Below, one piece after another: positions 19,143-53,978 of a DNA stretch of 64,000 nucleotides. The notes below the pieces were generated by a model that was not told where the DNA came from, searched no databases, and saw only the letters and a program-made list of their open reading frames with translations. This DNA comes from an uncultured Actinomycetota bacterium. Its GTDB lineage: Bacteria; Actinomycetota; Actinomycetes; Propionibacteriales; Nocardioidaceae. A program made the translations under genes and the position numbers. The stretch lies in assembly GCA_963812265.1 (NCBI GenBank), contig CAWEUL010000005.1:55915-119914 (forward strand), read 5' to 3'. Position 1 is the stretch's first letter, and every line of letters begins with the position of its first letter.

Positions 19143-20504
19143 TCACCCCACGTCTCGAAGGCTGACCTTGGCCAGGCGTTGGTCCAGGGCCTCGGCGACG
19201 GCCAGCGACTCGAGCAGCTTGGCGGCCCAGTCCGGAGGAGGGTCGGGGATCGGGTGCTTGGTGACCAGCTTGTCGATCGCCCGGTAGCGCTTGAGGATCT
19301 CGCTGAGGATCTCGGCGAGGGTGGGCGGCTTGGTGAGGTAGATCAAGGAGCCGCACCCGGCCGGCACGTCGCCGTACTGCGGGTCGTCGTAGGAGTTCGC
19401 ATACTCATAGGCGTCAGAGTAGTTGAACGCCTCGCGCACACTGACCCGCCCGTCGCTGTTGGCGTCCGGTTGGTGCCCGAGGCTCGCGCCGTACGCCGTA
19501 GCCGCGTTGACGGCCTCGAACCAGGTGCGCGCCCACTGGTCGAAGTGCGCGTCGCCGGCGCTCGGCTTGGTGGCGGGCACCGCGCTTGCGAACGAGGTCC
19601 GGCTCGCCGAGCTGTGGTCGAGGGTGGGTTGCAGGAACGCCCCCGAGTAGCACTGCTCCATGGTCACGACGAGCGTGCCGAACGGATCCATCCCGTCGAG
19701 CATCGTCGACCACTCCGCGGGGGTCAGCACCGATGAGTTGTCGACGCACAGTCCCGTCGTGGAGCCGTGGTTGTTGGTGTGGACGAACAGCAGGCTGTTC
19801 TCGTCCATGCGGGCGCTGATCTGGTCGATCGTCGTCTGGAGGTTCGCCTTGGTGGCCGAGGCGGTGACCTGCATCTGGTACGCCGTGTTGTCGCCGACCC
19901 AGGTGGCCATGTCGGCACCCGAGTAGTCGGTCGATCCGATGGTCCCGTCGTAGCAGAGCACATAGATGTTGGCGGCGGGGAACCCGAATCTGTGACGAAG
20001 GATGCGGTAGGCGAACTCGATGTCCTCCACGTGGCGACGATTGCTGATCTGGCTCGTCCACAGCAGCGCGAAGCGGTTGTCGTCCACCAGCCACGGGAAG
20101 TGGGCAACGGCATCCCAGTCAACCCGGTCATAGAGCGTCGGCAGCGTGGCGGACTGCTTGAGCGGCTCGTGGAAGTAGTCGGGCCTCAGCGCCCGGTCGG
20201 AGACCTCGGGAGGGAACTGCGCGAGCGCCGTGCCGAGCAGGGCGCCGTCGCGGATCGAGTGGAACAGGTAGCGGCACGGGTGGCCGAAGTTGGCACCGGG
20301 CAGCTGGTCCTCGAACACGACGATCGCGTCGTCCGGCACCTCGATCTCGCGGTCGACCAGCCGGAGCACGTGACCCCGGCGCAGGGCGCGCGGCACCACT
20401 CCCAGGTGATGAGCGGCGGCCCGGTCGGGGGTGAGCACCGCGAACGCCTCCGCCCGAGCACGCTCGACGATCTCTTTCCTGGGCTTCCTCAGATACTCGG
20501 CCAT
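19143..20504 (-). CDS. Clan CD cysteine peptidase (legumain C13/caspase-like) with N-terminal accessory domain and EF-hand-like loop
   Basis: HTNNHG...MEQCYSGAF His-Cys dyad in caspase/legumain spacing; ATKANL and YVLCYDG segments; DANSDGRVSVRE loop; AAGGAGG RBS; no signal peptide. Confidence 0.75.
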   Translation of the reverse strand: MAEYLRKPRKEIVERARAEAFAVLTPDRAAAHHLGVVPRALRRGHVLRLVDREIEVPDDAIVVFEDQLPGANFGHPCRYLFHSIRDGALLGTALAQFPPEVSDRALRPDYFHEPLKQSATLPTLYDRVDWDAVAHFPWLVDDNRFALLWTSQISNRRHVEDIEFAYRILRHRFGFPAANIYVLCYDGTIGSTDYSGADMATWVGDNTAYQMQVTASATKANLQTTIDQISARMDENSLLFVHTNNHGSTTGLCVDNSSVLTPAEWSTMLDGMDPFGTLVVTMEQCYSGAFLQPTLDHSSASRTSFASAVPATKPSAGDAHFDQWARTWFEAVNAATAYGASLGHQPDANSDGRVSVREAFNYSDAYEYANSYDDPQYGDVPAGCGSLIYLTKPPTLAEILSEILKRYRAIDKLVTKHPIPDPPPDWAAKLLESLAVAEALDQRLAKVSLRDVG

Positions 20505-20523
20505 GATTTCCCTCCTTGGTGTG

Positions 20524-20865
20524 TCACGGCGGTACGAGGTCAGCGATCCCGTCCGGGTCCGCAGCCACGACCCACGTTTCCGGGAGACGGCCGTAGGCCG
20601 GCGGCCGGTCGCTGTCGACGGTGAGCAGCAGCTCGCCCGAGTCCAGGTCGAGGAGCGCGTAGGTGCAGGGGTGCATCCAGTTCGCCTGCGGCATCTGGTC
20701 GCGGAAGACCAGGAGCGACCGGCCCCGGATCTGGTGGGACTCGCTGCCGAGACTGACGGCTCCCGCTTCCCGAACGGCGCGGTCGACGTAGACAACGACA
20801 CCTTCTGCTGCGCCGAAGGCGCGAACTGCCGCCTCGACTGCAACCTCGCTGTCGACCAGCGTCAT
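20524..20865 (-). CDS. 113-aa stand-alone paralogue of the peptidase N-terminal domain
   Basis: LVFRDQMPQANWMHPCTY versus VVFEDQLPGANFGHPCRY in the adjacent peptidase. Confidence 0.75.
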   Translation of the reverse strand: MTLVDSEVAVEAAVRAFGAAEGVVVYVDRAVREAGAVSLGSESHQIRGRSLLVFRDQMPQANWMHPCTYALLDLDSGELLLTVDSDRPPAYGRLPETWVVAADPDGIADLVPP

Positions 20866-21072
20866 CTGGGTCTCACCTGGATCTCGGTCCGGATGAAGGG
20901 AGCCGTGGAGTTCACCGCAGATACAGGACTTTCGCAGAGTACGGCTGATCGGACCGCGGGCACCACCGTCTCCCGGATCGTGCCCGGTCTCCCGTTGCCG
21001 TGTGCGCACGATGGTGGTTCACTGACGAGACCGGGGTTCGGGCCCTGTGGCCCGCTCCGGCGGGAGACGTCC

Positions 21073-24000
21073 ATGCGACGGAACACACGTACCCCTCAGC
21101 CAGGTCGCCGCTCGCGCCGAGCACCTGACCCGGGCAAGATCCTGCCGGAACCGCTCACCGCGATTCCGCCCGATGTGCTGGCGGCGATGCCGCGTCGGCC
21201 CTCACACCACTTCCGGGTGCTGCGCCCCGGTGACCTGGTCGTGCTCGACGTGCTCGGCTTCGGCCTCCAGTCGGCGGCTGACGACGGACAGCTGCATCTG
21301 GAACCCGCCGAGGACGACGCCTACCTCGAGGTGCGCTACACCTTCCAACACCTCCACGAAGCCGCGGAACCGGAGCCGAACGGACCCTCGCCGTTCCCGC
21401 CGACGCCCATCCCGGTGCCGGTTCGCGCCGCGAACGGCAGTCGCCTCGTGTACGACGTTCCCGACGGTGAGCAGATCCCCTACAACGTGAAGGGGGTGCT
21501 CGCCGCGATGTCGCGACTCCCGTTGCGGGTCGTGCCCCTGGCCACCCCGCGGCCCGGCCGCCGCCGGTTCACGCCCGGCGCGTTCGCCGACGCGCACACC
21601 AGCGTCGTCCTGCCAGGCGGGCTGCGCCTGCTCAACTCCGCCGAGGGGCTGGTCCTGGCTCCGCCGGCTCGGGGTGCGGTGTCGACGCCGGGCCGCCCCC
21701 GTGAGCTCCTGACGAACGCGCTCGCCCTGCGGACCGCCAGGCATCTGCTGGTCAGCCAGCGCGCGGTCGACCTGAGCGGGATCGCCCGGCCCGGCACCGC
21801 TCTCGGGCCAGGCGGGTTGACCTTCGAGCCGCCCGTGGTCCGACCTCGGCGGCAGCGCCCGCGAGCCCCGAAGCCCGATGAGACCGCCATCGAGGCGCCG
21901 TTCCGGCTGATCCTGTCGCCCAGCGTCCTGGGCGGGTTCACGCACGCGGTGAAACCTCGGCGGGTCGCGCCCGATCCCGCCCGAGCGCACGACCCTGAGC
22001 GGGTCGAGCTGTGGCACAGCCGGCTCGGGGTCCGCCGTGTCGACGAGGACGGCGTCGTGTCGGTCGACGAGACGACGGACCAGCAGAAGATCGTGAGAGC
22101 CGTCTGGACCCGCGACCTGGACAACCCGCCACCTGACCTGATCACGTTCCTGGCCTCGCTCACCGCCGAGGACCGTGAGGCGCTGGTGCGCGAGTCGGCA
22201 GACCCGGCGTACGCCACGCCGCAGCCGGTGTCCGCAGAGAAGCTGAGCCTGTCCTCGCTCGGGGCCTGGTTGGAGCTGCACGGCCGTTGGGACGACGGCC
22301 CCTACATCGACACCCCCCACATCGTCACCCGGTGGGACCACCAGGCGGCCAGCGGGCGGGACTTCTACGTGCGGGTGGACCAGCCGTACTACGTCTATCC
22401 GACCGGACACCAGGCCGTGCTCGTCACGATCACCGAGCGCAAGATCAAGGAGGTCATGAACCCGCAGGCCCGGCTCTACCAACGCAAGTTCCTGCTGTTC
22501 AAGGACCCGTTGCGCACCTACACGAGCCGCACCTGGCCGTTCACGCAGATCCGGATCCGGCCCCTCGCGACCCCCAACCTCGACTTCAAGCTGCCCCCGC
22601 CCACGCCGCCCGACGTCGCCGGCTCGGTGGGCTCCTGGGGGGACGATCTGTTCTGGCCGATGGTCGACGGCGCGCGCTACAAGTTCCTGCTCGACTGCCT
22701 CGACCACGAGGGCCGACGGGTGATCCTGAGGACACCTCTGCTTGCGGTGTCCGCGACGATGAACACCGGCGACGAGCGGGCGGCCGTCGAGAAGGCGTAC
22801 CGCGACGACGGCGACCACGTGGTGCCCGGCGACGGACAGAGTGTTGCCATGGGCCCGATCACGGTGCCCGGAGACACGGCCTACGAGACCGTGAACCTCG
22901 GCTTCGACGGGGCGGCCGAGCAAGGGACCTCCACACCCACGCTGGCCGATGCCGACATCGTGGTGCCGGCGATGCAGCACCTGGCGCCCAACGCCGACCA
23001 GGTGACGGTCTCCTACGCCGATGCCTACGCCGCATCGGGTTTCGCGGGAGCCAACGCCACCGCTCAGGTGCTGCTCAAGCTCACTACCCAGGCGAAGATC
23101 GAGTTCGGCAACGGCACCGACCGAGCCGGCGGGTTCGTCCAGCCGGACCTCCCCGTCGACGGGCTCTCTCGGGTCCTCGGCATCGTCGGCGACGTCGACT
23201 CCGTGGTCTCCCCGACGACTCCGGGGCTGGACTTCGACCCCGACAAGTTCCTGGCCAACGTGACCCCGATGCTTTTCGGGCTCTTCGAGCTCACCGACAT
23301 CCTGGCCGCCGCGGGACTGGACAAGGCCCCGCGGTTCGTGACCGAGCAGCTGGACAAGATCGCCGCCCTGTTGGCCGACGTCGACGACCTGGTCCCTGCC
23401 GTGGACCGGGCGGTCACCCGCCTACAAGACGACGCGGCGAACGCCGCCACCTCTGCCTTGAAGACGCAGGCCGAGCAGGCCCGCGCGGCGATCGCGGCTC
23501 TGCAGTCCGACCTGGACTCCACCGTCGCCGACCTGACGGCGGCACTCGACGCGCTGATGGCGCTGGACGCACCGAGCGACCTGCCGTCGGTCACCGCCGC
23601 GGTCGGGGGCCTGCTCGGTGACCTGTCGGGCTTCGTCGCCTCGCTCGACCAGTCGGTACGCCAGCTGCCGATGCCGGCCGCCGCGAAGGCCGACCTGGAA
23701 CGACTGACCGGTGCGCTGGGCCCGCTCCTGGACGTGGCCGCGGTCGCGGACACCCTCGAGGCGGTCGCGGACTTCGTCAACGGCATCGACCCGGCGAGCA
23801 TGACCATCCGGGCCCGCTATGACTGGCGCCCGACGATGAAGAACTTCCCCGACGTCATCGACCCTGCCCAGGCCCTGTTCTTCATGCCCAAGGACGGCTT
23901 CCAGCTGTCGGTCGAGGCCCGCGCCTCCGGCGCCACGGGAGTCGGCGTCGACGTGCTCGCGGAGCTGCGCGACTTCGGCCTCAACCTCTTCCTCGACCAG

Positions 24001-24831
24001 ACGCTGCTGACGATCCGGTTCGATCGGCTGGCGTTCCGCGCCGCCTCGGGTCGCAAACCCGAGGTCGACGTGGTCTTCGCCGGGATGGAGTGGAAAGGCG
24101 TTCTGGGGTTCATCGAGACCCTGCAACGGCTTATCCCGTTCGACGGCTTCTCCGACCCGCCGTACGTCGACGTCAGCACCGATGGCGTCACTGCCGGATT
24201 CGACCTTGCCCTCCCGAACGTCGCTGTCGGGGTGTTCAGCCTCGAGAACATCAGCCTCGGTGCCGACATCCGGGTCCCGTTCCTGGGCGACGCACTGACG
24301 GTCGGGTTCAACTTCTGCACCCGGGAGAAGCCGTTCAGGTTGACCGTCATGGCCATCGGCGGGGGTGGCTTCGTCGGGCTGCGGCTCTCGCCCAAGGGCC
24401 TGGTCATGCTCGAGATGGCACTCGAGGCGGGCTGTTCGCTGTCCCTCGACTTCGGGGTGGCGTCGGGCTCGGTGTCGGTCATGGTCGGCATCTACATGAA
24501 GTTGGAGGACGACAAGGGCAGCCTCACCGGCTACTTCCGGATCCGTGGCGAAGTGGACGTCCTCGGCCTCATCTCCGCCTCGATCACGCTCGAGCTGGCG
24601 CTGACCTACGACATGGACACCGGCAAGATGGTCGGTCGGGCCTCGATCACCGTCGAGGTCGAGGTGCTGTTCTTCTCGACCTCGGTCAAGATCAGCTGCG
24701 AACGCCGGCTCGCCGGCTCGAAGGGGGATCCCACCCTGGCCCAGATCCTCGGGGTGCCCGAGGACGGTACGCCACTCGGCGCCGTGCCGGCCGCCTGGAC
24801 CGACTACTGCGCCGCCTTCGCGGGAGCCTGA
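21073..24831 (+). CDS. Giant hypothetical protein A (1252 aa): beta-rich N-part, helical middle, Gly-rich beta C-terminus
   Basis: Uninterrupted ORF with strong GC3 bias; GGGAG RBS before ATG 21073; no family recognised. Confidence 0.8.
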   Translation: MRRNTRTPQPGRRSRRAPDPGKILPEPLTAIPPDVLAAMPRRPSHHFRVLRPGDLVVLDVLGFGLQSAADDGQLHLEPAEDDAYLEVRYTFQHLHEAAEPEPNGPSPFPPTPIPVPVRAANGSRLVYDVPDGEQIPYNVKGVLAAMSRLPLRVVPLATPRPGRRRFTPGAFADAHTSVVLPGGLRLLNSAEGLVLAPPARGAVSTPGRPRELLTNALALRTARHLLVSQRAVDLSGIARPGTALGPGGLTFEPPVVRPRRQRPRAPKPDETAIEAPFRLILSPSVLGGFTHAVKPRRVAPDPARAHDPERVELWHSRLGVRRVDEDGVVSVDETTDQQKIVRAVWTRDLDNPPPDLITFLASLTAEDREALVRESADPAYATPQPVSAEKLSLSSLGAWLELHGRWDDGPYIDTPHIVTRWDHQAASGRDFYVRVDQPYYVYPTGHQAVLVTITERKIKEVMNPQARLYQRKFLLFKDPLRTYTSRTWPFTQIRIRPLATPNLDFKLPPPTPPDVAGSVGSWGDDLFWPMVDGARYKFLLDCLDHEGRRVILRTPLLAVSATMNTGDERAAVEKAYRDDGDHVVPGDGQSVAMGPITVPGDTAYETVNLGFDGAAEQGTSTPTLADADIVVPAMQHLAPNADQVTVSYADAYAASGFAGANATAQVLLKLTTQAKIEFGNGTDRAGGFVQPDLPVDGLSRVLGIVGDVDSVVSPTTPGLDFDPDKFLANVTPMLFGLFELTDILAAAGLDKAPRFVTEQLDKIAALLADVDDLVPAVDRAVTRLQDDAANAATSALKTQAEQARAAIAALQSDLDSTVADLTAALDALMALDAPSDLPSVTAAVGGLLGDLSGFVASLDQSVRQLPMPAAAKADLERLTGALGPLLDVAAVADTLEAVADFVNGIDPASMTIRARYDWRPTMKNFPDVIDPAQALFFMPKDGFQLSVEARASGATGVGVDVLAELRDFGLNLFLDQTLLTIRFDRLAFRAASGRKPEVDVVFAGMEWKGVLGFIETLQRLIPFDGFSDPPYVDVSTDGVTAGFDLALPNVAVGVFSLENISLGADIRVPFLGDALTVGFNFCTREKPFRLTVMAIGGGGFVGLRLSPKGLVMLEMALEAGCSLSLDFGVASGSVSVMVGIYMKLEDDKGSLTGYFRIRGEVDVLGLISASITLELALTYDMDTGKMVGRASITVEVEVLFFSTSVKISCERRLAGSKGDPTLAQILGVPEDGTPLGAVPAAWTDYCAAFAGA

Positions 24832-24832
24832 C

Positions 24833-27800
24833 ATGGTCATCGAGTCCTTCCTGGTCACCGCTCTTCCCCGCACCGCGGATCCCGCTCGCGGCCAGCACGT
24901 GTCGCTGTTCGTCACTCACCGGCTCACCCCGGACGGGGGAGTGGGCGTGGTCGGAGACTTCCCCCACGTCGCGGAGTGGACCGCCGCGTTGGGGAGCGCC
25001 CGGATCGAGCTGCGCGGTCACGTCGGCGGCGTCGAGCACACGATCCCGACGACCGCCCGGCTGGGACGGTTGATCCCCACCCTGTGGCCGCAGGTGTTCC
25101 CGCCGAAGCTCAGTGTCCGGCCCTGGGTCACCGCGGATCCCGCCGCGGAGGAATGGCGCTCGTTCCCGGCCCACCGGATGCAGGCGCATGCGCTGCTGAC
25201 CCACGCCGCGGCAGTCTTCTCCTCGCCCGTCGGCTCGCCGGGAGTCAGCGGCAACGTGCTCACCGGACTCCTGCTCGACGCTCTCGGGCTCCGGCAGTTC
25301 GAGGGCCGGATCTCGATGGACCTGCTCTTCGACGAGGACTTCGGCCTCGACCGGCGGGTCACCGACCTGCTCAACGAGGTCACCGAGGGTGGCCGAACCT
25401 CGCCGAGTGGCGGCCAAGACCCGCTGCTGGCGCTCGCAGCGGACGTCCACCGAGCCCGGCTCTACTACGAGCGGCCGGCCGAGCAGCGCACGTACCGTGA
25501 CCAGCCCGACCCGCAGGCCAGTCCGCCCCCGGTCGTCACACCGGACCCCGACTTCCACGAACGGGCCTCGATGCTCGGCGACCTCTCCCCGCTGCTGCGG
25601 CGGCTGGGTCTGGTGGTCGACCTGCACATCGACGACCTCGGCGCGCTCGCCGGCGTCACGGAGATCAGCGCCTCGATCGTCGTCGCGGGGCTCGACAACC
25701 CGATCAAGAACCAGCCCAGGACCGCCTGCGTGGTGGACGGCCACGGATTCTGGGTGGCCTCGGCGAGCGGTGACCACCATCGTGGCCTGCTGCGCCTGGG
25801 CGATGAGGAGCGGTTCCGGGTGCTGGACCTCGACCCGGACGCCTCCGGCCTCAAGCTCGAGCAGTATGTGCGCAACCTGCCCCGGATGTCGGCCACCGAG
25901 GAGAACGGCGATCCCGCCAGCTCGGCCCCCGCGTCGCTGCGGGCAGCCGGGTTCGCGGTCGCCCGCGTGGATCGCGCCGACCAGCTGCACGCGCAGCTCG
26001 CCGGAGCGCCGGCCCAGGACCAGGCTCTGATCTCGGGAACCGCCGCGCCGTTGACGATCGAGAGCCTCGCCCGCGGTCTCCGCCTCGAGGTCTGGGACGA
26101 CGTCTCGACGCAGTGGCACTCCCTGCACCGTCGCCGGATCGACGTCGAGGTCGACGGCGCCGGCGCCGTGCTGTCCGACACCCCGGACACCGGTTTCCTC
26201 CAGGGTGCGGCGCTCACCCGGTCGGAGGATCCCGACGGGAACACGGTCGCCGCGCCGTACTACTCCCACGAGGTGCTCGCCGGCTGGGAGGGCTGGTCGC
26301 TGTCGGTGCCCAAGCCGGGCAAGGTGGTCATCGCGGATGGAGACGACCCGGTCGACGAGCCCGACCCGGACCCCGACCCGGTCCACCCAGTGGCCACCAC
26401 CAGCCATATCGAACAGCTCACACTGCCGTGGCTGCGCTACGGACGCAGCTACGCCTTCCGTGCCTGGACCGTCGATCTGGCCGGCAACAGCGCCCCCCAC
26501 CGGGTGGCCGGCCCCGACCCGGCGGACCCGGAGGGGCCCGAGACCCCGACGGCGGCACCCCGCCGCACGCCCCGGCGCACCGGACCCGACCCGCTGGACC
26601 TGGCACAGCGTGCCGCGGGTGGCCGGTTGGCGCAGCTTCCGCACGACGCCACCTCCACCGCCGCCGGGCCGGTGCGCGACGCCGTACGCGCGCGGCATCC
26701 GGTCGAGGAGCCCGGCCCCCGCCGCGGGTCCGGGGCCCGCGGGCTCGACCTGACCGAGGTCACCCCGACCGGCATCGCCGCGGTCGACGTGGTGGTCCGT
26801 GCCCGGACGTCCGAGCGGGCCGCGCGGGACGGCGTGCCGGGACCCACCAGGCGGGCCCGCATCGAGACGGCGTTCCACCAGGCGGCCGCCGAGGTGCCGC
26901 ACCTGATGGAGCGGACCGATGTCCACCTGGACCCGGCCCTCCTCGGGTCCGCGCTGGCCTCCGCGGCCCAGACCCAGGCAGACCTGCCGGCGCTCACCCT
27001 GCCGGTCCTCAGCGAGCTCCTGGACCTGGTCACGACACCGCGGCCCTTCCTGCGGTGGGACCCGGTCGTCGAGCCGGTCGTCGTGCCTCGGCACCCTTAC
27101 ACCGAAGCCGAGTCCCAGCTGACGCTCGTCATCCGGTCTGGTGTCGAGCATCCGGACGGCGACGATCCGTATGCCGTCAGCATCGTGGACCCCGGGGCCT
27201 ACAGCGCTCAGGCCAAGGCGGCGCACCCGGAGCTGGACCTGGAGTGGCGGGCCAGGTCCCAGAGGCATCTCGCTCCACCGAAGACCAGCCAGTACGAGGC
27301 GGAGCTGCACGGTCGCTTCGACGCCGCGTTCGGCAGCGCCGACCCGGCTGTGGTCCGCGCTGCGCTCGGGGTCGCCCTGCGTGAGTCGGGCACGCTCTTC
27401 GACCCGACGGTCGCCGACCTCGACCACCCGGGTGAGCGGCTCCCGCAACCTGGGATCGCGTTCCACTCGAGCCCGACGGCCGAGGTGCCGGACGTGACCG
27501 ATCCGGCCGACCTGGAGCGGGGCGCGGGCCTGACTCCGGGTCAGTACGTCGTGCACGGCACCGACGAGCTGACCCTTCCCTATCTGCCGGATCCGCTCGC
27601 GAGCCGGTTCTCGATGACCTTCCCGGACGCGGGCCAGGGTCACCATCTGTTCGGGCTGTGGGCGATCGAGGGGGTGACGCTGCCCTACGCCGGAAGCTGG
27701 CCGCAGTGGCAGCCCTATCGCATGGTGCTGGAGTCCGGACCCACTCTCGAAGCGCGCTCGACCAGCCAGGTGGTGCGGTTCCGAGTACCTCCGGGCGAGC

Positions 27801-29416
27801 AGCTGAGGATGAACCTGTCCTCGGCGATGCGGCGCCAGGACCTCGACCTGCTCGGACTCTGGCGCTCGCTGCCGGAGGCGATCCGCTCGCTCGACGTAGT
27901 GGCCGACGCCGCCGCCGACGGCTGGCTGTGGTGGCTTACGCCCGCCACTCCGGTGCGGCTCGTCCACGCGGTGCCCAAGCCCGTCGAGGTGCCCCGCACG
28001 ACCGTCCTGGTGCCGGTGCGCGTCGCCGACGGGACCGACGTACGGCTGTTCGGCGGCGTCGACCTGCACGGCCCGAGCACCGAACGACTCGACGTCGAGG
28101 CCGAGTGGACCGAGTGGGTGGACGACGTCAGCAAGCCGGCCGGGCCGGAGCAGGTCACGGTGAGCGCGAGGGCCGCCGCCACCTCCGTGGGCTACGACGA
28201 GGACCTCGTGGTGCTCGGAGGTGAGGAGGACTCCTCGATCCCGCTGCCCGACGGAACCACGCTGGCGGTGCACGCCGCCGTGCATCAGCTCGGCGACACC
28301 CGGCACCGGATGATCGACTACCGGATGCGGGCGACCACGCGGTACCGCGAGTACTTCGACCCGCGGGTGTTGCCGACCGTCGACGACGTCTCGGTTGTCG
28401 GCCCGGCGGCCCGGCTCGACGTCCCGAACACGGCCCGGCCGAACAAGCCGATCGTGCACGACGTGCTCCCGCTGTTCAGATGGAACGAGCTCACCGAGCC
28501 GGCGCAGCCGTTCGGCTTGCGACGGACCCGGCGCTCGGGCCTGCGGGTCTACCTGGAGCGGCCCTGGTTCTCCTCGGGGGACGGCGAGCTGCTGGGGCTG
28601 GCCCTGGCGCTCGGCAAGGACACCGCGACCGAGAACCATGTCTGCTTGTGGGGTGGCGACCCGGCCTACCTCCAGGCGGGGCCGGCGCACCGCTCGATCC
28701 TGCCGCTGAGCGACCTCACCCACCTCGCCGGGCTCGACGACCGCCCCGAGGGGGGCCGACCCGTGGGCACCCCGGCCGTGCAGACCCTGGTGGACGTTCC
28801 GGGCGAGCCTCCCGTGTGGGTGCTCGGCTATGAGCCCGTGTTCTCGCCGGAGCGTGGACTGTGGTTCGCCGACATCGCCCTCGATCCTGGGACCGCCATC
28901 TGGCCGTTCGTCCGGCTCGCGCTCACCAGGTTCCAGCCGAGCTCGGTTCCGGAGAAGCACCTGTCTCCGGTGGTGCTGACAGACTTCGTGCCCCTGCCTC
29001 CCGAGCGCACGGCCACCCTCACTCGGCCGGATCGTCGACACGCGCGGGTGATCGTCACTGGGCCGATCGGGGTGCCCGACATGGGCATCGAGGGGATGGG
29101 CTTCGTCGAGTCGCTCCTGGCGTCGCGCACGATGCGGGCCAGGCTGGAGCGTCGCGTGCCCGAGATCCCGTCGGACCTCGGCTGGGAGACCATCGCGTCG
29201 CTCGACCTGCCCATCCTGGGCCTCGAGGGCACGGTCGTGTCGTGGTCGGGCGAGCTGGAGCTGCCGAGTGCCGTGCCCCCGCGTCGGCCCGGCTCGAGCC
29301 AGACCTGGCGGATCGTCCTCGAGGAGTGGGAGACCCTTCCGTCGGACGCGACGGGCAGTGCACGTGGGCTCAGCACCCAGTCGCGCGTCGTCTACGCCGA
29401 CCACCTGCCGCTGTAG
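24833..29416 (+). CDS. Giant hypothetical protein B (1527 aa), likely tandem Ig/FN3-like beta domains
   Basis: Starts 1 nt after the stop of A; YAFRAWTVDLAGN and YRMRATTRY FN3-like strands; Pro/Arg-rich internal linker. Confidence 0.8.
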   Translation: MVIESFLVTALPRTADPARGQHVSLFVTHRLTPDGGVGVVGDFPHVAEWTAALGSARIELRGHVGGVEHTIPTTARLGRLIPTLWPQVFPPKLSVRPWVTADPAAEEWRSFPAHRMQAHALLTHAAAVFSSPVGSPGVSGNVLTGLLLDALGLRQFEGRISMDLLFDEDFGLDRRVTDLLNEVTEGGRTSPSGGQDPLLALAADVHRARLYYERPAEQRTYRDQPDPQASPPPVVTPDPDFHERASMLGDLSPLLRRLGLVVDLHIDDLGALAGVTEISASIVVAGLDNPIKNQPRTACVVDGHGFWVASASGDHHRGLLRLGDEERFRVLDLDPDASGLKLEQYVRNLPRMSATEENGDPASSAPASLRAAGFAVARVDRADQLHAQLAGAPAQDQALISGTAAPLTIESLARGLRLEVWDDVSTQWHSLHRRRIDVEVDGAGAVLSDTPDTGFLQGAALTRSEDPDGNTVAAPYYSHEVLAGWEGWSLSVPKPGKVVIADGDDPVDEPDPDPDPVHPVATTSHIEQLTLPWLRYGRSYAFRAWTVDLAGNSAPHRVAGPDPADPEGPETPTAAPRRTPRRTGPDPLDLAQRAAGGRLAQLPHDATSTAAGPVRDAVRARHPVEEPGPRRGSGARGLDLTEVTPTGIAAVDVVVRARTSERAARDGVPGPTRRARIETAFHQAAAEVPHLMERTDVHLDPALLGSALASAAQTQADLPALTLPVLSELLDLVTTPRPFLRWDPVVEPVVVPRHPYTEAESQLTLVIRSGVEHPDGDDPYAVSIVDPGAYSAQAKAAHPELDLEWRARSQRHLAPPKTSQYEAELHGRFDAAFGSADPAVVRAALGVALRESGTLFDPTVADLDHPGERLPQPGIAFHSSPTAEVPDVTDPADLERGAGLTPGQYVVHGTDELTLPYLPDPLASRFSMTFPDAGQGHHLFGLWAIEGVTLPYAGSWPQWQPYRMVLESGPTLEARSTSQVVRFRVPPGEQLRMNLSSAMRRQDLDLLGLWRSLPEAIRSLDVVADAAADGWLWWLTPATPVRLVHAVPKPVEVPRTTVLVPVRVADGTDVRLFGGVDLHGPSTERLDVEAEWTEWVDDVSKPAGPEQVTVSARAAATSVGYDEDLVVLGGEEDSSIPLPDGTTLAVHAAVHQLGDTRHRMIDYRMRATTRYREYFDPRVLPTVDDVSVVGPAARLDVPNTARPNKPIVHDVLPLFRWNELTEPAQPFGLRRTRRSGLRVYLERPWFSSGDGELLGLALALGKDTATENHVCLWGGDPAYLQAGPAHRSILPLSDLTHLAGLDDRPEGGRPVGTPAVQTLVDVPGEPPVWVLGYEPVFSPERGLWFADIALDPGTAIWPFVRLALTRFQPSSVPEKHLSPVVLTDFVPLPPERTATLTRPDRRHARVIVTGPIGVPDMGIEGMGFVESLLASRTMRARLERRVPEIPSDLGWETIASLDLPILGLEGTVVSWSGELELPSAVPPRRPGSSQTWRIVLEEWETLPSDATGSARGLSTQSRVVYADHLPL

Positions 29417-29441
29417 GGAAAGGCACCGCACCGTCGGCGGG

Positions 29442-30245
29442 TCAGCCTGCCGGGGCCACGCCGAGCCGGATCGCGGCCACCCCGCGGACTCCGGACGGGC
29501 CGACCACCGTCCGGGACCGACCGTCCGCGGCGACGGCGAGCGCCGCCGCGGCGACGCGCGAGGCACCCGCCGCCGCGCCGAAGCGGTCGGCGGCATCGGC
29601 CGCCCAGGAGGAGCGAACCTCCTCAGGCAGCTGGTCGAGGCTCGCTGCCGTCCAGCACCCCGTGATCGCCGCGAGGCTGCCGCCGCCCTCCGGGGCCGCG
29701 GACAGCCGGACCGCGGCCGCCCCCTCAGCAGCGTCGGGGTGGCCGGCCAGCACCGTCGGCTCCGCAGCGTCGGCCGCGATCGCGAGCACCCGGTCGGCGC
29801 GGCCGGCGCTCAGCAGCCCGCACGCCTCCACCACCGCCTCGAGTCCCGCGTGCTCCCCGCACAGGGTCAGCGCTGGACCGGTGCAGCCGAGCAGGGTGGC
29901 GACATAGCCCACGTGCACGCTGACCACCGTGTTGGGGAAGGCCATCGGGAAGACCCGGTCGGCACCGTGCTCGGCCGCCACCTGCACGAAGTCCGCGAGC
30001 GGGGCGACGCTGGAGCGCGCCGAGCCGAGGACGAGGGCGTCGCGAGGCCCGGTCTCCGTGCCTGGGGGCAGCACCCTGGCCGCCACGCTCATCGCCAGGC
30101 GGGCGGTCCGGGAGAGCGGTCGAAGGCCGCGCAGCACCAGCGCGTCGGCGAGCAGCTCGTCGGTGACCAGCCCCGGCCGCTCGAGCTCGGTGTCGACGAA
30201 ACCCTCCGGACCGAACACGGCCGCGGCGCTGACGTACGCCGTCAC
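29442..30245 (-). CDS. Ketosynthase N-terminal-like, non-catalytic partner (chain-length-factor-like)
   Basis: RVFPMAFPNTV and GPALTL..GLEAV thiolase-fold motifs; catalytic Cys and both His motifs absent; GTGA overlap with upstream KS. Confidence 0.75.
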   Translation of the reverse strand: MTAYVSAAAVFGPEGFVDTELERPGLVTDELLADALVLRGLRPLSRTARLAMSVAARVLPPGTETGPRDALVLGSARSSVAPLADFVQVAAEHGADRVFPMAFPNTVVSVHVGYVATLLGCTGPALTLCGEHAGLEAVVEACGLLSAGRADRVLAIAADAAEPTVLAGHPDAAEGAAAVRLSAAPEGGGSLAAITGCWTAASLDQLPEEVRSSWAADAADRFGAAAGASRVAAAALAVAADGRSRTVVGPSGVRGVAAIRLGVAPAG

Positions 30246-31426
30246 GAGAGCCTCCGGAAGATGGTGACGGCGTTGCAGCCGCCGAAGGCGTAGGCCTGGT
30301 TGACCACGACATCGCCATCCCATGCACGAGGCCCGTCGGTGATGACGTCCCAGTCGCAGTCGGGGTCCTGCTCACCGACGTGCCAGGTCGGGGGCAGCGT
30401 CCGCTCGCGCAGCGAGACCACCGCGAGCACCGCTTCGAGGGCGCTCGCCGCGCCCAGGCCGTGGCCGGTCAGCGACTTCACCGACGACGCCGGTGGCCGG
30501 TGGCCGGTGTACACCGCCCGCAGCGCGAGCACCTCGGCTCGGTCGTTGGCCGGCGTGCCGGTGCCGTGGGCGCTCACCCAGCCCACGTCGTCCGGCCGGA
30601 CCCGGGAGTCCTCGAGGGCGGCCAGCACCGCCCGAGCCGCGCCGGCCCCTTCGGGGTGCGGGCTGGTCGGATGGTGGGCGTCGCACGACAGGCCGGCGCC
30701 GGCGAGTTCCGCGAGAGGCTCGGCCCCGCGTGCCTCGGCGGCCGCCCGCTCCTCGATGAGCAGGAACGCCGCGCCCTCACCCAGAACCAGACCCTGCCGG
30801 TCGAGCCCGAACGGCCGGCACCCGTCCTCGGCCAGTGCCCCGAGCCGGGCGAAGCCGATCAGCGCCGTCCGGCTGAACGCGTCGACCCCACCGGCGAGCA
30901 CCCGGTCACTGCGGCCGGCTCGGACGTCGTCCAGCGCCCGGGTCAGGGCGAAGTTGCCGGCCGCACAGGCACCACCGACCGCGGAGACCCGACCCCCGAC
31001 GCCGAGCTCGTCGGCCACCGCGGCCGCCAGGTCCTCCGGGGTGCCGCCGAGCAGCTCGCGTGCCCGGCCCGGCGGCGGTGGCGCCTGAGCCGCCTCCGCG
31101 TCCGGCCAGGTGTCGATCCAGCTCGGCTCGCCCATGGTCGTCCCCACCACGAGATCGAGCCGGGCCGGGTCGAGGGCGGCTCCGGACAGCGCATCCGAGG
31201 CCGCGACCAACCCGAGCGCCGTCGCTCGACCCCGCAGCGGCCGGCCGTCGGGGTCGCGGACCGGGCCCGGCGCGTCCGGTCCCACCACCCGCGCGACCAG
31301 CCGGCCGTCGTCGTCGCGGGTGACCCCGGAACGACCGGTGAGCGCTGCCTGCCAGGTGTGGTCCGGGCCGCGACCCAGCGGGGAGATCACCCCGAGGGCG
31401 GTGACGACCGCGACCCGGTCGGACAC
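30242..31426 (-). CDS. Beta-ketoacyl-ACP synthase (FabF/KAS II-like)
   Basis: GACAAG (Cys), SAHGTGTPAND and GHGLGA (His, His), AYAFGGCNA. Confidence 0.9.
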   Translation of the reverse strand: MSDRVAVVTALGVISPLGRGPDHTWQAALTGRSGVTRDDDGRLVARVVGPDAPGPVRDPDGRPLRGRATALGLVAASDALSGAALDPARLDLVVGTTMGEPSWIDTWPDAEAAQAPPPPGRARELLGGTPEDLAAAVADELGVGGRVSAVGGACAAGNFALTRALDDVRAGRSDRVLAGGVDAFSRTALIGFARLGALAEDGCRPFGLDRQGLVLGEGAAFLLIEERAAAEARGAEPLAELAGAGLSCDAHHPTSPHPEGAGAARAVLAALEDSRVRPDDVGWVSAHGTGTPANDRAEVLALRAVYTGHRPPASSVKSLTGHGLGAASALEAVLAVVSLRERTLPPTWHVGEQDPDCDWDVITDGPRAWDGDVVVNQAYAFGGCNAVTIFRRLS

Positions 31427-31427
31427 C

Positions 31428-31667
31428 TCAGGCCTGCTTGTGACGCACGAGCTCGGCGAGCTGGCGGACGCTGTGAACCGTCTTCAGGTCGGTGTCGTCG
31501 AAGCGCACCCCGCACCGACGCTCCACGTGGACGGCGATCTCCATCGCGAGCAGCGAGTCGATGCCGGCATCCACGAAGGGCGTGTCGAGCCCGACCTCGT
31601 CCGGTGACAGCTCGGCGAGGTCGGCGACCAGTTCGCGGAGGTCGGCGTCCAGCTCGGTCTCGGTCAC
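31428..31667 (-). CDS. Acyl carrier protein
   Basis: GIDSLLAMEI phosphopantetheine site; acidic 79-aa protein. Confidence 0.9.
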   Translation of the reverse strand: MTETELDADLRELVADLAELSPDEVGLDTPFVDAGIDSLLAMEIAVHVERRCGVRFDDTDLKTVHSVRQLAELVRHKQA

Positions 31668-32653
31668 GGGACACCTTCCAGGTCGCGGATCGGGTCAGGG
31701 AGCCCATCGGGCAGGTGGTCGGGTGGCGGGGCGAAGACCGCGCGGGCGCGAACCAACGCGTCCTCGGCCCCGAGCAGGCTCGCCAGCGGATCTCCCACGA
31801 GACGGTACGCCGAGGCCTCCGGACTCGGCGTACCGTCGCTGAGCAGCATCCTGCTCAGCAGGTTTCCGACGTCCGGCGCAGGCCCGCGTAGGGCCGTGGC
31901 GAGGGCGAGCACGATCCGGGTGTTGTCGAGATGCAGCACCGGTCTCACCGCGCCGACGGCCGCCGCGGCCGACCCCTGGAGCACGACCTGCTCGGAGAAG
32001 CTGGTGGCGACCCCACGTCGACTCGCCGTCCAGCAGGTCAACGACAGCAGCAGGCCCAGCGGCTCGGACAGCCCCTCGGGACCGGGCGCCAGGTGTGCCG
32101 CTCGGAGCCCGCGGTAGGCCGCCCACCCGCTGGGTCGTCCGTGACCGAGGTAGACCGCGGCGCCGAGGCCGAGTCCCAGCGCCGTGACCAGGTCCTCCCG
32201 GGTGATCCGCTCGGCACCCCACCGCACGCTCGGCAGGTCGCCCAGGTGGTGCACGAGACGGTCCGAGAGCCGCTGGTAGCGCGGGCTGCGCTGGCCCAGG
32301 ACCGCCACCGGCGACACCTCGTGCCGGGTGGCCACCGCGGTGGCGGCCCGGACGAAGGGCGTGAGATCGCGAGCCGCCGGCAGCCAGCCCGCCGGAATCC
32401 AGCCGTGGTCCGCGGAGCGCACGAACGGCTGGCCGGTGACCGTTCCGGGCTTCCGGCGCCGGTCGCCCACGACCAGCACCCCGGCCGCCCCGCCGGGCAC
32501 CAGCCGCGGCCACTCGTCGTCGGCCGGCAGGTCGTCCCGGGCGATCACCCGCACCGACCGGGAGGCGGAGCGCAGCACGACGAGCGGCTCGAGCTGGGGC
32601 AGCCGCGAGCGCGGGGCGACCAGCACCCAGCACCCGTCCTCCTTGGTCGGCAT
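31664..32653 (-). CDS. Gingipain (peptidase C25)-like clan CD protein
   Basis: VYLGHG His motif, LSLTCWT Cys motif, SFSEQVV...AAAAVGA and terminal YRLVGDP, the order seen in C25 catalytic domains; no signal peptide. Confidence 0.65.
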   Translation of the reverse strand: MPTKEDGCWVLVAPRSRLPQLEPLVVLRSASRSVRVIARDDLPADDEWPRLVPGGAAGVLVVGDRRRKPGTVTGQPFVRSADHGWIPAGWLPAARDLTPFVRAATAVATRHEVSPVAVLGQRSPRYQRLSDRLVHHLGDLPSVRWGAERITREDLVTALGLGLGAAVYLGHGRPSGWAAYRGLRAAHLAPGPEGLSEPLGLLLSLTCWTASRRGVATSFSEQVVLQGSAAAAVGAVRPVLHLDNTRIVLALATALRGPAPDVGNLLSRMLLSDGTPSPEASAYRLVGDPLASLLGAEDALVRARAVFAPPPDHLPDGLPDPIRDLEGVP

Positions 32654-35445
32654 CAGGCCGCCCGCACCTCCACGATGTAGGGATCGAAGTGCACCGTGGA
32701 CTGGCCGGCCTTGTTGGTCGCGTAGAAGTCCTGGACGAGCTGGGCCTGCTGCTCGGGGTTGAACGCGTCGAGCCCGTCATCCTTGTGCGCGTCGAGACCG
32801 GCGTCGCCGCCGTAGTCGTAGCCGTCGGTGGCCTGGCCGATCAGCGCGTGGGCCATGTACGCCGGGCCGGTCTGCTCGCCCTGCCACACGTGCATCAGTT
32901 CGTGGATCAGCCACGACTCCTGAGCGGGGTCGGTGTCGCTGTAGCTGTCGGGGAAGTGGATGATCCGCATCGTGGTGACCCCGGTGTCGCCTCCGGTGTT
33001 GTTCGCAGCAGCCCACGACACGAACGAGCCGACGAACAGCCGGATGTCGTCCATCGGCAGCGTGTCCTCGTAGACGAGCGTGGCCCGCTGGCGCTCGCCT
33101 GTGGTCAGCGGGCGGAACACGCCGAAGACCTCGAGCAGCACCGCCACCACCGTGAAGATCGCGCCGCCCACGATCTCGATCAGCCCGTCGAGGCACTCCT
33201 GGAGGCCGGCGCCGGCATCCTTGAGCGACTGCACCAGGTACCTCTTGTCGGCGTCGTTGAGCGTGAACGCCGGCTCGAGGATGTCCTTGACGGTCTTCCC
33301 GAGGTCGCGCATCGCCTGCACGAACAGGGCTCCGGCGTTCTGCGGTTGCTGGGCGATCGCGACCAGCAGCTGGGCCAGGCTGACTCCGAACGCGAGCGCG
33401 GCCTGCAGGACCGCCACGACGGCGCTCAGTGCCTTCCCCACCGCCCAGAGGATGATCTGGACGACGGCCAGGCCCGCTCTCAGCAGGCCGGTGACGACGC
33501 TGATGAGCCCGGGGATCAGGTCCTTGGCGACCCAGGTCAGCAGATAGCTCACCGAGTTCTTCAGCCGCACCCACACCTCACCGAGCAGGTCGAGCGCCTT
33601 CGCGCCCACGGCCTTGGCCCAGTCGATGACGTCGCGCAGCCTGCTGCCGATGTCCTCGGCGATCCGCACGATCATCTCGAGCAGGTCGGCGCCCTTCTTC
33701 AGCGCCCAGTCCAGTGCCTCGTCGAGCGCCTTGCGGACGAACCGGATCGCCAGCACGGCTTCGCGCATCAACGCGTCGATGGCGTTCCCGGCCTGGGTGA
33801 GAACCCAGTCCAGGACCTCGCCGACCTTGCGTCCGGCGTCGAGGATGCCGGTGATCATCCTGCGCAACAGGTAGTAGGTGCCCTTGGCGGCCTCCTCGAG
33901 GAGCTGGGCGAGCTTGATGCCCGCGGCGAGCGCCGCCTCGACGAACCGACGCGCGGTCCTGTACGTGAACGCGACGACCGCCTGCACGATCTCGACCAGT
34001 GCCTTCCCTGCGGCGATCAGGGCCTTGATGACGTCCCGGATCGCGGAGGTCACCAGCTTGGCCACCTCCTTGACGATCCGTAGGACGGCGTACCCGAGCT
34101 CGAGCGCCGCCTCCACGATGCGTTTGATCGCTCTCAGCCCGGCCTGGGCGAGCTCGTGGACGAGTTCCCCGAGCGTCCGGCCGATCTGCAGGAGCGCCTT
34201 GGCCACGGCCTTCGCGACGGCCACCGCGGCGTTCGCGATGAGGTGGCACAGCTCGACGAAGCCGCTCGCGATCTCGGCGATCGCCCGGACCACCTCGCTG
34301 AGAAGGTGCGCGGCCGCGCTCAGGGTGGCGTTGACGATGTCCGCGATCGCCCGGCCGAGCGCGATCAGCGCCTTCACGGTGTCGCGCAGCAGCGTGAGGG
34401 TGTACTGCGCGGCGGCGGCCAGCAGGTCGCCGATCTGACGACCGAGGGAGAGTAGTGCGCCGACCACGGACTGAAGCACACCAAGGGCGGCGCGGGCGGC
34501 CTGCTGGAGCAGGTTGCCGACGGACTTGCCGATCGCGATCAGCGCCTCGACAACTCGTCGTACGGTGTCGGCGACCTGGGTGGCGAGCCAGGAGAGCAGC
34601 TCGCTGAGCTGGTGTCCCAGGTTGTCGATGGCCCGCAGCAGGTCGACCAGCGCCTGCCCGACGAACCGTGCCGCCTGCTCGAGGATCTGGAACATCGCCT
34701 TCCCGACGTTGCGGATCGCCGAGATCATGTTGCGCACGAAGTCGTAGCCGTAGGCGACAGCGGCCTCGAGGAGGTCGAAGATCGTCTGGCCGGCGTTGAG
34801 CAGTGCCTGGGCGAGGTTGGTGAGCTTGTCGACGGTCCAGTTGACGACGGCGGAGATCGCGTCGACGAGGTCCTCGAACGCGTGGACGACCGCGTCGACC
34901 ACGTTCTCGATCACCTCCTTGATCTCGTCGACCACGTCCTCGATGAACTCGACGACCGCATCGTCGTGGTCGGGCTCGCCCTCGTCGTCGAGCGGCGGCG
35001 CCGCGCTCGTGCGGATCTGGGCGCCCATGGTGGCGACGTAGGTCCACACCTCCTCGAGGGCCGCCTTGTCCTTGCGGCCGGCCGGAGTGAGGACGTAGTC
35101 CTTCATCAGCGCGCGCCCGTGCGCCGCCGGCAGCTCACCGATGGCGTGCACGATCCACTGGTCGTGATGGGCGTCGCGGTAGCCCTTGATCAGGGTGCGT
35201 CGCTCGTCGGCGTCCCGCGAGAGCGCCACCGCCTGGAACACCTGGCGATGCTGGTCGATCGACGGCAGGGTCGTGGCGTACGCCGTCGCGAGTCTCCGGG
35301 CCGCAGGCCTCGAGGTCTTGTACATCTGGCGGTAGACCGGGCCGACCTCGCTCGGCGTCGGCTTGATCTCTGCCACCCGAGCGTTGACCACACCCATATC
35401 GGTCGGCAACGTGCCCAAGGCGTCTAGTACGCGCTGTCCAGCCAT
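32653..35445 (-). CDS. 930-aa helical-repeat protein with C-terminal HExxH (DUF4157-like) metallopeptidase domain
   Basis: RPLTTGERQRA...WLIHELMHVWQ...FNPEQQAQLV; long amphipathic repeat region; GGGAGG RBS before ATG 35445. Confidence 0.75.
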   Translation of the reverse strand: MAGQRVLDALGTLPTDMGVVNARVAEIKPTPSEVGPVYRQMYKTSRPAARRLATAYATTLPSIDQHRQVFQAVALSRDADERRTLIKGYRDAHHDQWIVHAIGELPAAHGRALMKDYVLTPAGRKDKAALEEVWTYVATMGAQIRTSAAPPLDDEGEPDHDDAVVEFIEDVVDEIKEVIENVVDAVVHAFEDLVDAISAVVNWTVDKLTNLAQALLNAGQTIFDLLEAAVAYGYDFVRNMISAIRNVGKAMFQILEQAARFVGQALVDLLRAIDNLGHQLSELLSWLATQVADTVRRVVEALIAIGKSVGNLLQQAARAALGVLQSVVGALLSLGRQIGDLLAAAAQYTLTLLRDTVKALIALGRAIADIVNATLSAAAHLLSEVVRAIAEIASGFVELCHLIANAAVAVAKAVAKALLQIGRTLGELVHELAQAGLRAIKRIVEAALELGYAVLRIVKEVAKLVTSAIRDVIKALIAAGKALVEIVQAVVAFTYRTARRFVEAALAAGIKLAQLLEEAAKGTYYLLRRMITGILDAGRKVGEVLDWVLTQAGNAIDALMREAVLAIRFVRKALDEALDWALKKGADLLEMIVRIAEDIGSRLRDVIDWAKAVGAKALDLLGEVWVRLKNSVSYLLTWVAKDLIPGLISVVTGLLRAGLAVVQIILWAVGKALSAVVAVLQAALAFGVSLAQLLVAIAQQPQNAGALFVQAMRDLGKTVKDILEPAFTLNDADKRYLVQSLKDAGAGLQECLDGLIEIVGGAIFTVVAVLLEVFGVFRPLTTGERQRATLVYEDTLPMDDIRLFVGSFVSWAAANNTGGDTGVTTMRIIHFPDSYSDTDPAQESWLIHELMHVWQGEQTGPAYMAHALIGQATDGYDYGGDAGLDAHKDDGLDAFNPEQQAQLVQDFYATNKAGQSTVHFDPYIVEVRAA
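33140..34815 (-). repeat. Protein-level tandem repeat, about 19 units of 29 aa
   Basis: VEALIAIGKSVGNLLQQAARAALGVLQSV / VGALLSLGRQIGDLLAAAAQYTLTLLRDT / VKALIALGRAIADIVNATLSAAAHLLSEV and further units; Gly usually at position 8. Confidence 0.8.
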
Positions 35446-35649
35446 GTTGATCGCCCTCCCGCGGGCGAACCGATCCCCCACCGGTTCACCGGCTGGCTCG
35501 TGTCGTGCTGCCGCCGCACAGCGGCTAACTGCTCACTGTGGCGGAACAGGCGCCGGACGGCAATAAGCCCGGTGCTCTGGCGCTCGCACGGCGGCCGACC
35601 TGGGCACCTCCGACTTACCAACGACGGAATTTCTGCCCACAATGTCGGC

Positions 35650-50031: not shown

Positions 50032-50418
50032 GTGAAGAGCGCACGTGACCTGGTCGCGGAAGCGAACGCCCAGATCGAGACCGTGTCGGTGCAGGAGGCG
50101 GCGACCGATCTCTCCGGCGAGACTGCTGTCTTCCTCGACGTTCGCGAGCCGACCGAATGGGAGACGCACATCGAAGGCGCGCTGCAGATCCCACGGGGGA
50201 TCCTGGAGGCGGCTGCTGACCCGTCGAGCCCTCGACATGAGCCGGTATTGGACCCCGAGCGTCGAGTCATCGTGTACTGCCGGTCCGGGGCACGCTCAGC
50301 GATGGCGACCGCGACTCTGAAGATCATGGGGTTCTCCCACGCGGTCAATCTCGGTGGTGGCTTCACCGCGTGGCGAGAGGCCGGCCTTCCGGTCGCCGAG
50401 CATCACGCCGGCATCTGA
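50032..50418 (+). CDS. Rhodanese-like sulfurtransferase
   Basis: FLDVREPTEW, IPRGILE, YCRSGARS, LGGGFTAW; AGGAGG RBS. Confidence 0.9.
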   Translation: MKSARDLVAEANAQIETVSVQEAATDLSGETAVFLDVREPTEWETHIEGALQIPRGILEAAADPSSPRHEPVLDPERRVIVYCRSGARSAMATATLKIMGFSHAVNLGGGFTAWREAGLPVAEHHAGI

Positions 50419-50612
50419 TACAGCAGCACCCGAACGGGCAGCTCGAGCGAGACTCCGGGCGCGAGCATGACGTTCGCCACGTCGGCTGGTCTCACCCCCG
50501 CCGGGTGTTGCGATCCCGAGACACCCGCGGTACCCAGGATCTGGGGGCGCTCGAGCGGATGCGCGTAGTTCGAGGAAGCGCCCGAGAGGGCCACTCAGGA
50601 GGGGTGAACAGT

Positions 50613-53933: not shown

Positions 53934-53978
53934 GATTCAGCTGACTGAGATCGGTCGACACGGCAACAGGAGGACAAC

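Follow-up and report, generated by a model that had tools for sequence, protein, structure and literature searches.

Genes A and B

The window analyzed here is a 64,000-nucleotide (nt) stretch of contig CAWEUL010000005.1 from an uncultured Actinomycetota bacterium of the Nocardioidaceae, with a GC content of about 69% and a sequence detected solely in soil and sediment DNA metagenomes. It carries two adjacent forward-strand genes, here called A and B, encoding proteins of 1252 and 1527 amino acids (aa). The best explanation is that their products are the subunits of a two-protein complex that is self-contained and has not been described before. The features that define the pair are as follows:

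21062..21067, + strand: Shine-Dalgarno sequence GGGAGA of gene A, 6 nt before the ATG at 21073, read from the sequence
21073..24831, + strand: gene A, 1252 aa, the A subunit of the A-B cassette (GC at third codon positions 0.88, translation, at least 408 full-length homologues, AlphaFold2 model)
24822..24826, + strand: Shine-Dalgarno sequence GGGAG of gene B, within the last codons of A (GCG GGA GCC), read from the sequence
24833..29416, + strand: gene B, 1527 aa, the obligate partner, with a helical region and beta-sandwich arrays (translation, at least 264 homologues, AlphaFold2, Foldseek)

Gene A is real. The forward frame 20413-24831 shows the coding signature of a high-GC genome, with GC fractions of 0.71, 0.49 and 0.88 at the three codon positions. 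Its start is fixed by the Shine-Dalgarno sequence, by the region upstream of the ATG, which is antisense to a divergent gene at 19143-20843, and by full-length homologues of 1215-1348 aa that align from the same start over 95-100% of their length. The gene therefore spans 21073-24831, exactly the limits given in the original prediction, an earlier note on this stretch.

Gene A ends with TGA at 24829-24831 and the ATG of B begins 1 nt later, such that the ribosome-binding site of B lies inside the last codons of A and the conserved ..AFA(GA) tail of protein A therefore overlaps physically with the translation start of B. The two genes are translationally coupled, and conservation across clades extends to the very last residues of A and the very first of B. 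A common origin of the two proteins as paralogues was considered and rejected, with an hhalign probability of 0.2.

The high GC content gives rise to many shadow open reading frames (ORFs) in the window. One of them, an ATG-initiated frame of 1634 aa antisense to B (24692-29596, - strand), is such a shadow and not a gene; the coding signal and all homologues lie on the forward strand. Comparable frames cover A at 21202-22980 and 23422-24915.

Architecture and conservation of protein A

The AlphaFold2 model of protein A covers aa 53-1252, was built on an alignment with 113 homologues, and reaches a mean predicted local distance difference test (pLDDT) score of 82 and a predicted template modeling (pTM) score of 0.70. 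It divides the protein into the following parts:

21073..21210, + strand: polybasic, proline-rich and poorly conserved N-terminal tail, aa 1-46, at the position that a twin-arginine translocation (Tat) signal occupies in relatives (conservation profile, homologue N-termini)
21211..23355, + strand: predicted N-terminal beta-rich domains, aa 47-761, several sheets with strands of 11-14 residues (AlphaFold2, mostly pLDDT above 85)
23356..23778, + strand: predicted five-helix amphipathic bundle, aa 762-902, between two beta-strands (AlphaFold2, alpha-periodic moment z = 3.5)
23800..24711, + strand: C-terminal beta domain, aa ~910-1213, the superfamily signature, best-conserved region, kept in all clades (3,573 clusters)
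24355..24711, + strand: predicted seven-strand amphipathic meander of long hairpins, aa 1095-1213 (AlphaFold2, beta-periodic moment z = 5.2, face conservation)
24790..24828, + strand: conserved short C-terminal helix and tail (W..YC.AFA), the protein end in all clades (AlphaFold2, cross-clade alignment)

What the original prediction had observed from the letters alone is borne out in every respect. The helical block that it placed between beta regions at 23290-23790 corresponds to the five helices, which fall inside that interval and have a 100-degree hydrophobic moment 3.5 standard deviations (sd) above that of shuffled sequences; by sequence, this bundle gives only sub-threshold matches, to Baculo_PEP_C, apolipoprotein and FAT-domain helices. 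The all-beta C-terminus with glycine turns is likewise recovered. Its last seven strands are predicted to be 12-18 residues long and to be joined by glycine turns of 2-4 residues, and the 170-degree moment over aa 1095-1213 stands 5.2 sd above shuffles. Instead of ordinary small beta-sandwiches, the C-terminus is thus predicted to contain a long-strand, amphipathic, antiparallel meander. These observed features are far beyond chance. A Kyte-Doolittle scan found no transmembrane helix or other hydrophobic segment in A or B; the best 19-aa window of A scores 1.5 and lies in the interior, and the N-terminus is not hydrophobic.

The C-terminal 300 aa are the best-conserved part of A, with a mean column identity of 0.8-0.9. 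On the hydrophobic face of the meander the character of the residues (I, L, V or F) is kept while the residue itself varies, and the polar face is conserved at least as well: E1114, E1118, Y1141, E1145, Y1154, R1156 and Y1179 are invariant, as is the GGGG at aa 1096-1099 (nt 24358-24369) that opens the meander, and R1158 and K1185 are present in 114 of 115 sequences. Such conservation of the polar face is as compatible with a pore lumen as with a protein interface. Despite being the most conserved, this region has the lowest pLDDT of the model (55-80), a combination that often marks a part needing a partner, an oligomer or another environment, as may be the case here. Mean-field co-variation (296 sequences, effective number 208) gave only indel artefacts and no usable contacts for the sheet topology, because the strands are too conserved.

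When the last 348 aa of A were searched as a single sequence against 1.84 billion representatives of clusters at 50% identity, 3,573 clusters were found at E <= 1e-3 and 1,528 at E <= 1e-30. Among the complete proteins in the best 150 of these 3,573, the C-domain sits nearly always at the extreme C-terminus; its bearers are nearly all proteins of 1000-3300 aa, from soil and rhizosphere bacteria of many phyla. Across clades, the domain follows the motif ..PF.L....GGGGF...E...EFG...G..SG.....GIY...L.GY...G.v.vLG...G.A......FS......E....G...W..YC.AFA-end.

A two-gene cassette spread across phyla

In a collection clustered at 90% identity, A has at least 408 homologues and B at least 264, all labelled hypothetical. 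A scan of one genome per species placed gene A in at least 559 species, mostly Actinomycetota, with further carriers among Acidobacteriota, Gemmatimonadota, Methylomirabilota, Myxococcota, Sphingomonas, Rhodanobacter and Burkholderiales. All-against-all clustering of the ORFs from 85 loci recovered A in 85/85 and B in 78/85, the missing B genes being mainly at contig ends, while every other recurrent ORF cluster was either an antisense shadow of A or B or limited to a few related loci. Neither this clustering nor a Pfam census of 127 upstream neighbors, in which no family occurred in more than four loci, revealed a conserved third gene, and the strands of the nearest neighbors are evenly split (35/35 upstream, 31/30 downstream). 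Of all genes in these 85 loci, which come from many phyla, only A and B are conserved together, so that the pair makes up a self-contained cassette.

The same two genes also occur together in Bacillus, Streptomyces, Diaphorobacter, Polyangiaceae and Ca. Saccharicenans, and the Bacillus B protein still shares 27% identity with the window B over 870 aa (E 7e-73). Plasmids or chromids carry the pair in Cupriavidus metallidurans CH34, Rhizobium, Diaphorobacter, Streptomyces and strains of the Bacillus cereus group, and the superfamily as a whole occurs on plasmids in Rhizobium, Agrobacterium, Sinorhizobium, Cupriavidus, Streptomyces and the Bacillus cereus group. On alphaproteobacterial plasmids, the C-domain ends giant proteins of 3039-3311 aa (L087 2135-11254, L088 1082-11017 and L091 1063-10221), each bearing a Tat signal and followed by a partner of 1262-1899 aa. 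All of these partners share the N-terminal pattern of B, and that of Ruegeria also shares short conserved motifs with the window B. The giant pair of Agrobacterium vitis adjoins dpdE/dpdF.

A stand-alone two-gene cassette that is sporadic across phyla and carried on plasmids, and that adjoins HNH, helicase and HD genes on a Bacillus plasmid and dpdE/dpdF on an Agrobacterium plasmid, is what one might expect of an anti-phage or conflict system, which when triggered would damage the membrane of its own host or block entry. We consider this very improbable, given that neither protein has a match in PADLOC, that the 127 upstream neighbors are ordinary housekeeping and metabolic genes without enrichment in defense functions, and that the pair has no sensor, NTPase or nuclease domain.

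Export signals and localization

Tat signals were scored as an N-terminal S/T-R-R-x-F-L motif with a hydrophobic region behind it. Canonical twin-arginine signals open the alphaproteobacterial giants and the Streptomyces homologues, with examples in S. meliloti (VITRRDFLGAAAAAPIMTATANLALA), Streptomyces (VSRRLFLRYSGAAGIAAAAAVS), A. vitis and Ruegeria. On motif and hydrophobicity, the test flags 37/80 relatives of the Streptomyces A homologue, and 24 of the 106 full-length representatives closest to the window C-domain, about 22 of which are convincing by eye. Most of these ~22 carry a cysteine in lipobox position (LTGC, LPGC, LVGC, LAGC and similar) behind the Tat signal and are, for this reason, predicted to be Tat lipoproteins, which would locate these relatives at a membrane surface. 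B-type proteins, by comparison, carry a Tat signal in 0/120 cases under a strict test and in 2/120 under a relaxed one.

In the window A and its 120 closest homologues the Tat signal is absent (0/120), in agreement with the original prediction, which had seen no signal peptide. At the same position, the proteins of this clade have a disordered tail of 20-100 aa rich in Arg, Lys and Pro, followed by a loosely conserved F-D-P-D-P motif. The tail could bind anionic lipid or nucleic acid. In some signal-less homologues it is histone-H1-like, with AKK repeats, and strongly polybasic examples are P0023, P0025 and P0067.

In two loci, the S. meliloti pC locus (L091 15587-15751) and a metagenome contig (L096 342-491), tatA lies directly beside a Tat-bearing A-B pair, such that the cargo may bring its own translocase subunit. 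A third tatA near the pair, in a metagenome-assembled genome of the Sphingomonadales, belongs to a housekeeping scpAB-tatA cluster and was not counted.

A signal on one subunit and none on its partner is the arrangement of Tat hitchhiker complexes such as the small and large subunits of hydrogenases and DmsAB, and it is shared by the A and B proteins of the signal-bearing relatives. The A-B proteins differ from these complexes in having no cofactor-binding domain, the window A also in having no Tat signal, and the cargo would be of another order, about 300 kDa and, for the 3000 + 1800-aa alphaproteobacterial versions, more than 500 kDa, which to our knowledge is far above any known Tat cargo. 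A bolder proposal, that A-B is a new kind of bacterial membrane or lipid machine in which an amphipathic-sheet protein acts with a macroglobulin-like partner on either face of the cytoplasmic membrane, and that in many lineages it is exported folded through Tat as a heterodimer of 300 to >500 kDa, with the signal on A only and sometimes with its own TatA, strikes us as unlikely. If true, it would make A-B by far the largest known Tat cargo and a bacterial counterpart of the eukaryotic lipid-carrying sheets. The Tat-bearing relatives would offer a test of how large a folded protein can be exported and of what additional TatA copies contribute.

Comparison with known families and folds

By sequence, neither A nor B has a significant match in Pfam, NCBIfam or PADLOC. 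At E <= 0.1, the Pfam scan of A returned a sole, helical and sub-threshold match to Baculo_PEP_C (24 bits against a cut-off of 38), and PHROGs gave a single marginal match, to the helical block (E 0.004). Nor did Pfam give a significant match for any of eight relatives from other phyla; one of them has a faint match to Vit_b-sht_shell (E 0.19, 12 bits against a cut-off of 27), and two homologues weakly match apolipoprotein-type helices. Searches of the PDB by single sequence and profile yielded only compositional helix matches for A and nothing for B, and Walker, HExxH, GxSxG and thioester motifs are absent from both proteins. Together, these searches show that A and B contain no recognizable enzyme, NTPase or known domain.

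The original prediction had proposed a C-terminal sheet forming either a lipid-bridging hydrophobic groove or a membrane insert, and had named TamB/AsmA, VPS13, Tc toxins, MACPF and DUF6603 proteins as candidates for comparison. None of these families was matched in Pfam, NCBIfam or the best 50 Foldseek hits in the PDB. What protein A has in common with AsmA, TamB and VPS13 is the notion of a very large protein bearing an extended amphipathic beta surface; it differs in having no profile match to AsmA, AsmA_2, TamB DUF490 or VPS13 and no N-terminal anchor, and no such fold was among those best 50 hits. Features of Tc toxins (VRP1, TcA, RHS and YD-shell domains, the cocoon fold) are absent from A in Pfam and Foldseek, and an RHS gene near one relative is not conserved across loci. 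DUF6603 matches none of A, B and the eight relatives in Pfam at thresholds from E <= 0.01 to E <= 1.

Structure comparison of A against the PDB points elsewhere, to lipid carriers and membrane barrels. Ranked by E-value, the top matches include MTP (6i7s, 8eoj; E 2e-5, probability 0.35) and ApoB100 (9e9r), at template modeling (TM) scores of about 0.08 and with lipid-transfer protein probabilities of 0.18-0.35, and the outer-membrane barrels PelB, Omp32 and OmpT reach probabilities of up to 0.99 at TM <= 0.31 and a root-mean-square deviation of about 18-20 Å. Like A, the large lipid transfer proteins (MTP, ApoB100, vitellogenin) are very large and combine beta domains and a helical domain with big amphipathic antiparallel sheets, which in their case are open and hold lipid. 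Their helices, however, form a 17-helix horseshoe instead of a five-helix bundle, whereas A-B is bacterial, has an obligate partner gene and shows no significant sequence match to them, with no profile hit to Vitellogenin_N, DUF1943 or Vit_b-sht_shell in the Pfam scan of A. Outer-membrane beta-barrels (porins, PelB, BcsC, LptD) resemble A in that their long strands form an antiparallel meander, hydrophobic on one face and polar on the other; in contrast to them, A has neither a Sec signal nor a C-terminal aromatic beta-signal (its end is ..AFAGA), and its family is also present in monoderms (Streptomyces, Bacillus, many Actinomycetota). On the strength of the model, we read A as holding large amphipathic antiparallel sheets of the sort seen in lipid carriers and membrane barrels while being a recognizable member of neither.

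The idea of a lipid-facing or membrane-inserting sheet therefore fares better than the families first proposed for it: the predicted meander, the MTP, ApoB100 and barrel neighbors and the Tat-bearing, lipoprotein-like relatives modestly strengthen it, whereas every family named fails and the fold matches are weak.

Against viral structures, Foldseek of A gave weak matches to tail fibers, gpJ and porin-like folds, with TM <= 0.1 for the long ones, and tblastn against 50,697 phage records found nothing. A phage-tail origin was rejected on these two results and on the lack of phage genes flanking the pair.

No profile or fold match links A to MACPF/CDC or other beta-pore-forming toxins, and the length and amphipathicity of its strands, which would suffice to span a bilayer, are not specific to pore-formers. 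The possibility that A-B is a binary beta-pore-forming toxin directed against other organisms, in which B binds the target and hairpins of A insert after release by lysis or, in relatives, after Tat export, nevertheless deserves mention, as the long amphipathic hairpins are rich in Gly and Ser, the helical bundle could mask them, the distribution is patchy across phyla with carriage on plasmids, including those of the Bacillus cereus group, and RHS, PAN and holin genes occasionally lie nearby. Several observations make it decidedly doubtful. In addition to the missing family match, many of the exported relatives are predicted lipoproteins that would remain on the producer, no immunity gene or other conserved third gene accompanies the pair, and both faces of the sheet are nearly invariant here, whereas the stems of pore-forming toxins are usually poorly conserved.

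For B, modeled over aa 328-1527 at pLDDT 83 and pTM 0.77, Foldseek returned alpha2-macroglobulin (E. coli, Salmonella), complement C5/C3, integrins, arrestins and FN3 chains, all at TM <= 0.22. The closest of these likenesses is to bacterial alpha2-macroglobulins and complement C3/C5, which like B string many beta-sandwich domains together over about 1500 aa. The bacterial alpha2-macroglobulins are, in addition, lipoproteins anchored to the membrane, and their genes lie beside a partner gene. Protein B departs from both groups in having no thioester CxEQ motif and no A2M Pfam domains, at TM <= 0.17. We read these matches as generic beta-sandwich arrays and B as a multi-sandwich scaffold.

These arrays are also the starting point for an explanation in which A-B has no membrane role at all and is a soluble binding or scaffold complex, its sheet docking B or oligomerizing and the macroglobulin-like arrays of B trapping or binding a macromolecule, which might be a protease, cell-wall polymer or foreign particle. 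The complex would then act in the cytoplasm or, where relatives carry a Tat signal, in the periplasm or at the wall. The invariant Glu, Arg and Tyr residues on the polar face are typical of an interface, the A C-terminus and B N-terminus are conserved across clades in coupled genes, the best folds of B are the E. coli and Salmonella alpha2-macroglobulin and complement C5/C3 arrays, and no hydrophobic segment is present in A or B. We regard such a complex as possible but rather unlikely: the divergence of B from true macroglobulins just described speaks against it, and it leaves unexplained both the strong amphipathicity of strands 12-18 residues long and the lipid anchor commonly predicted among exported relatives.

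The A-B family is described nowhere in the literature searched, and we rate it as lying outside every described kind, although a solved structure might still link it to a known class.

A possible role at the membrane surface

The reading that we tentatively adopt, and hold to be somewhat short of an even chance, is that A-B is a membrane-surface complex whose conserved amphipathic sheet would engage lipid. According to this proposal, the A-B complex would form in the cytoplasm. Where relatives bear a signal, the pair would pass folded through Tat with B as a hitchhiker, and a lipid anchor would often fix it to the cytoplasmic membrane from the outside. In the window clade, the disordered polybasic tail takes the place of the Tat signal, so that the complex would stay inside the cell, plausibly at the anionic inner face of the membrane. 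The working end would combine the C-terminal sheet with the amphipathic five-helix bundle next to it: the sheet may act on the bilayer or on bound lipid, by offering a lipid-binding surface or by inserting once the helices move aside, and the beta-sandwich arrays of B may supply binding or scaffolding. Because the cytoplasmic membrane is common to the exported and the signal-less versions, a membrane or lipid role of the sheet is favored; the two-faced sheet and the membrane-fastened relatives hint at such a role without proving it.

Several points weigh against this reading. The hydrophobic face may simply be hidden, either packed against the helices or inside a two-layer sandwich, and the invariant charged face suits contact between proteins just as well as a lumen. 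Foldseek yielded weak matches, with the TM scores and lipid-transfer probabilities given above, and porin matches are drawn generically by long beta-meanders. The polybasic tail could equally be nucleic-acid-binding or a relic, and the lack of an export signal in the 120 closest homologues makes a cytoplasmic, non-membrane role possible. Finally, we know of no precedent for Tat hitchhiking of a cargo of ~300 kDa or larger.

Whichever role applies, the C-domain of A defines a superfamily of about 3,570 clusters with no name, Pfam model or solved relative, and each carrier cell devotes about 8 kb of coding sequence to the A-B pair. If the membrane reading is true, the family would represent a new class of lipid- or membrane-acting protein. 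These questions are open to direct experiment in cultivable carriers such as C. metallidurans CH34, Streptomyces, strains of the B. cereus group and S. meliloti.

Neighboring genes in the window

Two genes for caspase-fold peptidase-like proteins bracket the cassette in the window, a Peptidase_C13-like gene divergent from A (19143-20843, - strand) and a Peptidase_C25-like gene (31664-32653, - strand). Convergent with B, at 29442-31426 on the - strand, a ketosynthase gene adjoins a ketosynthase-like (Ketoacyl-synt_2) gene; no carrier-protein or further polyketide genes were noticed near the two. The gene at 32653-35481 (- strand) encodes a protein of 942 aa that combines a long Ala-rich helical region with a DUF4157/eCIS_core domain (aa 824-871) close to the C-terminus; the helical region matches phasin, ZorA-tail and tape-measure-like proteins. 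This protein could be polymorphic-toxin-like or similar to the cargo of extracellular contractile injection systems, although no contractile-injection genes were seen among the window ORFs scanned. Since none of these neighbors (the Peptidase_C13-like and C25-like genes, the ketosynthase pair and the DUF4157 protein gene) is kept beside A-B in other genomes, they are not counted as parts of the cassette.

Further downstream, the forward strand carries a wax-ester synthase/DGAT gene (40867-42225) and a series of GH15, GH63-like and glycogen-debranching genes (50370-58612). Such ordinary neighbors show that the cassette of this bacterium lies within a normal chromosomal region and on no obvious mobile element.

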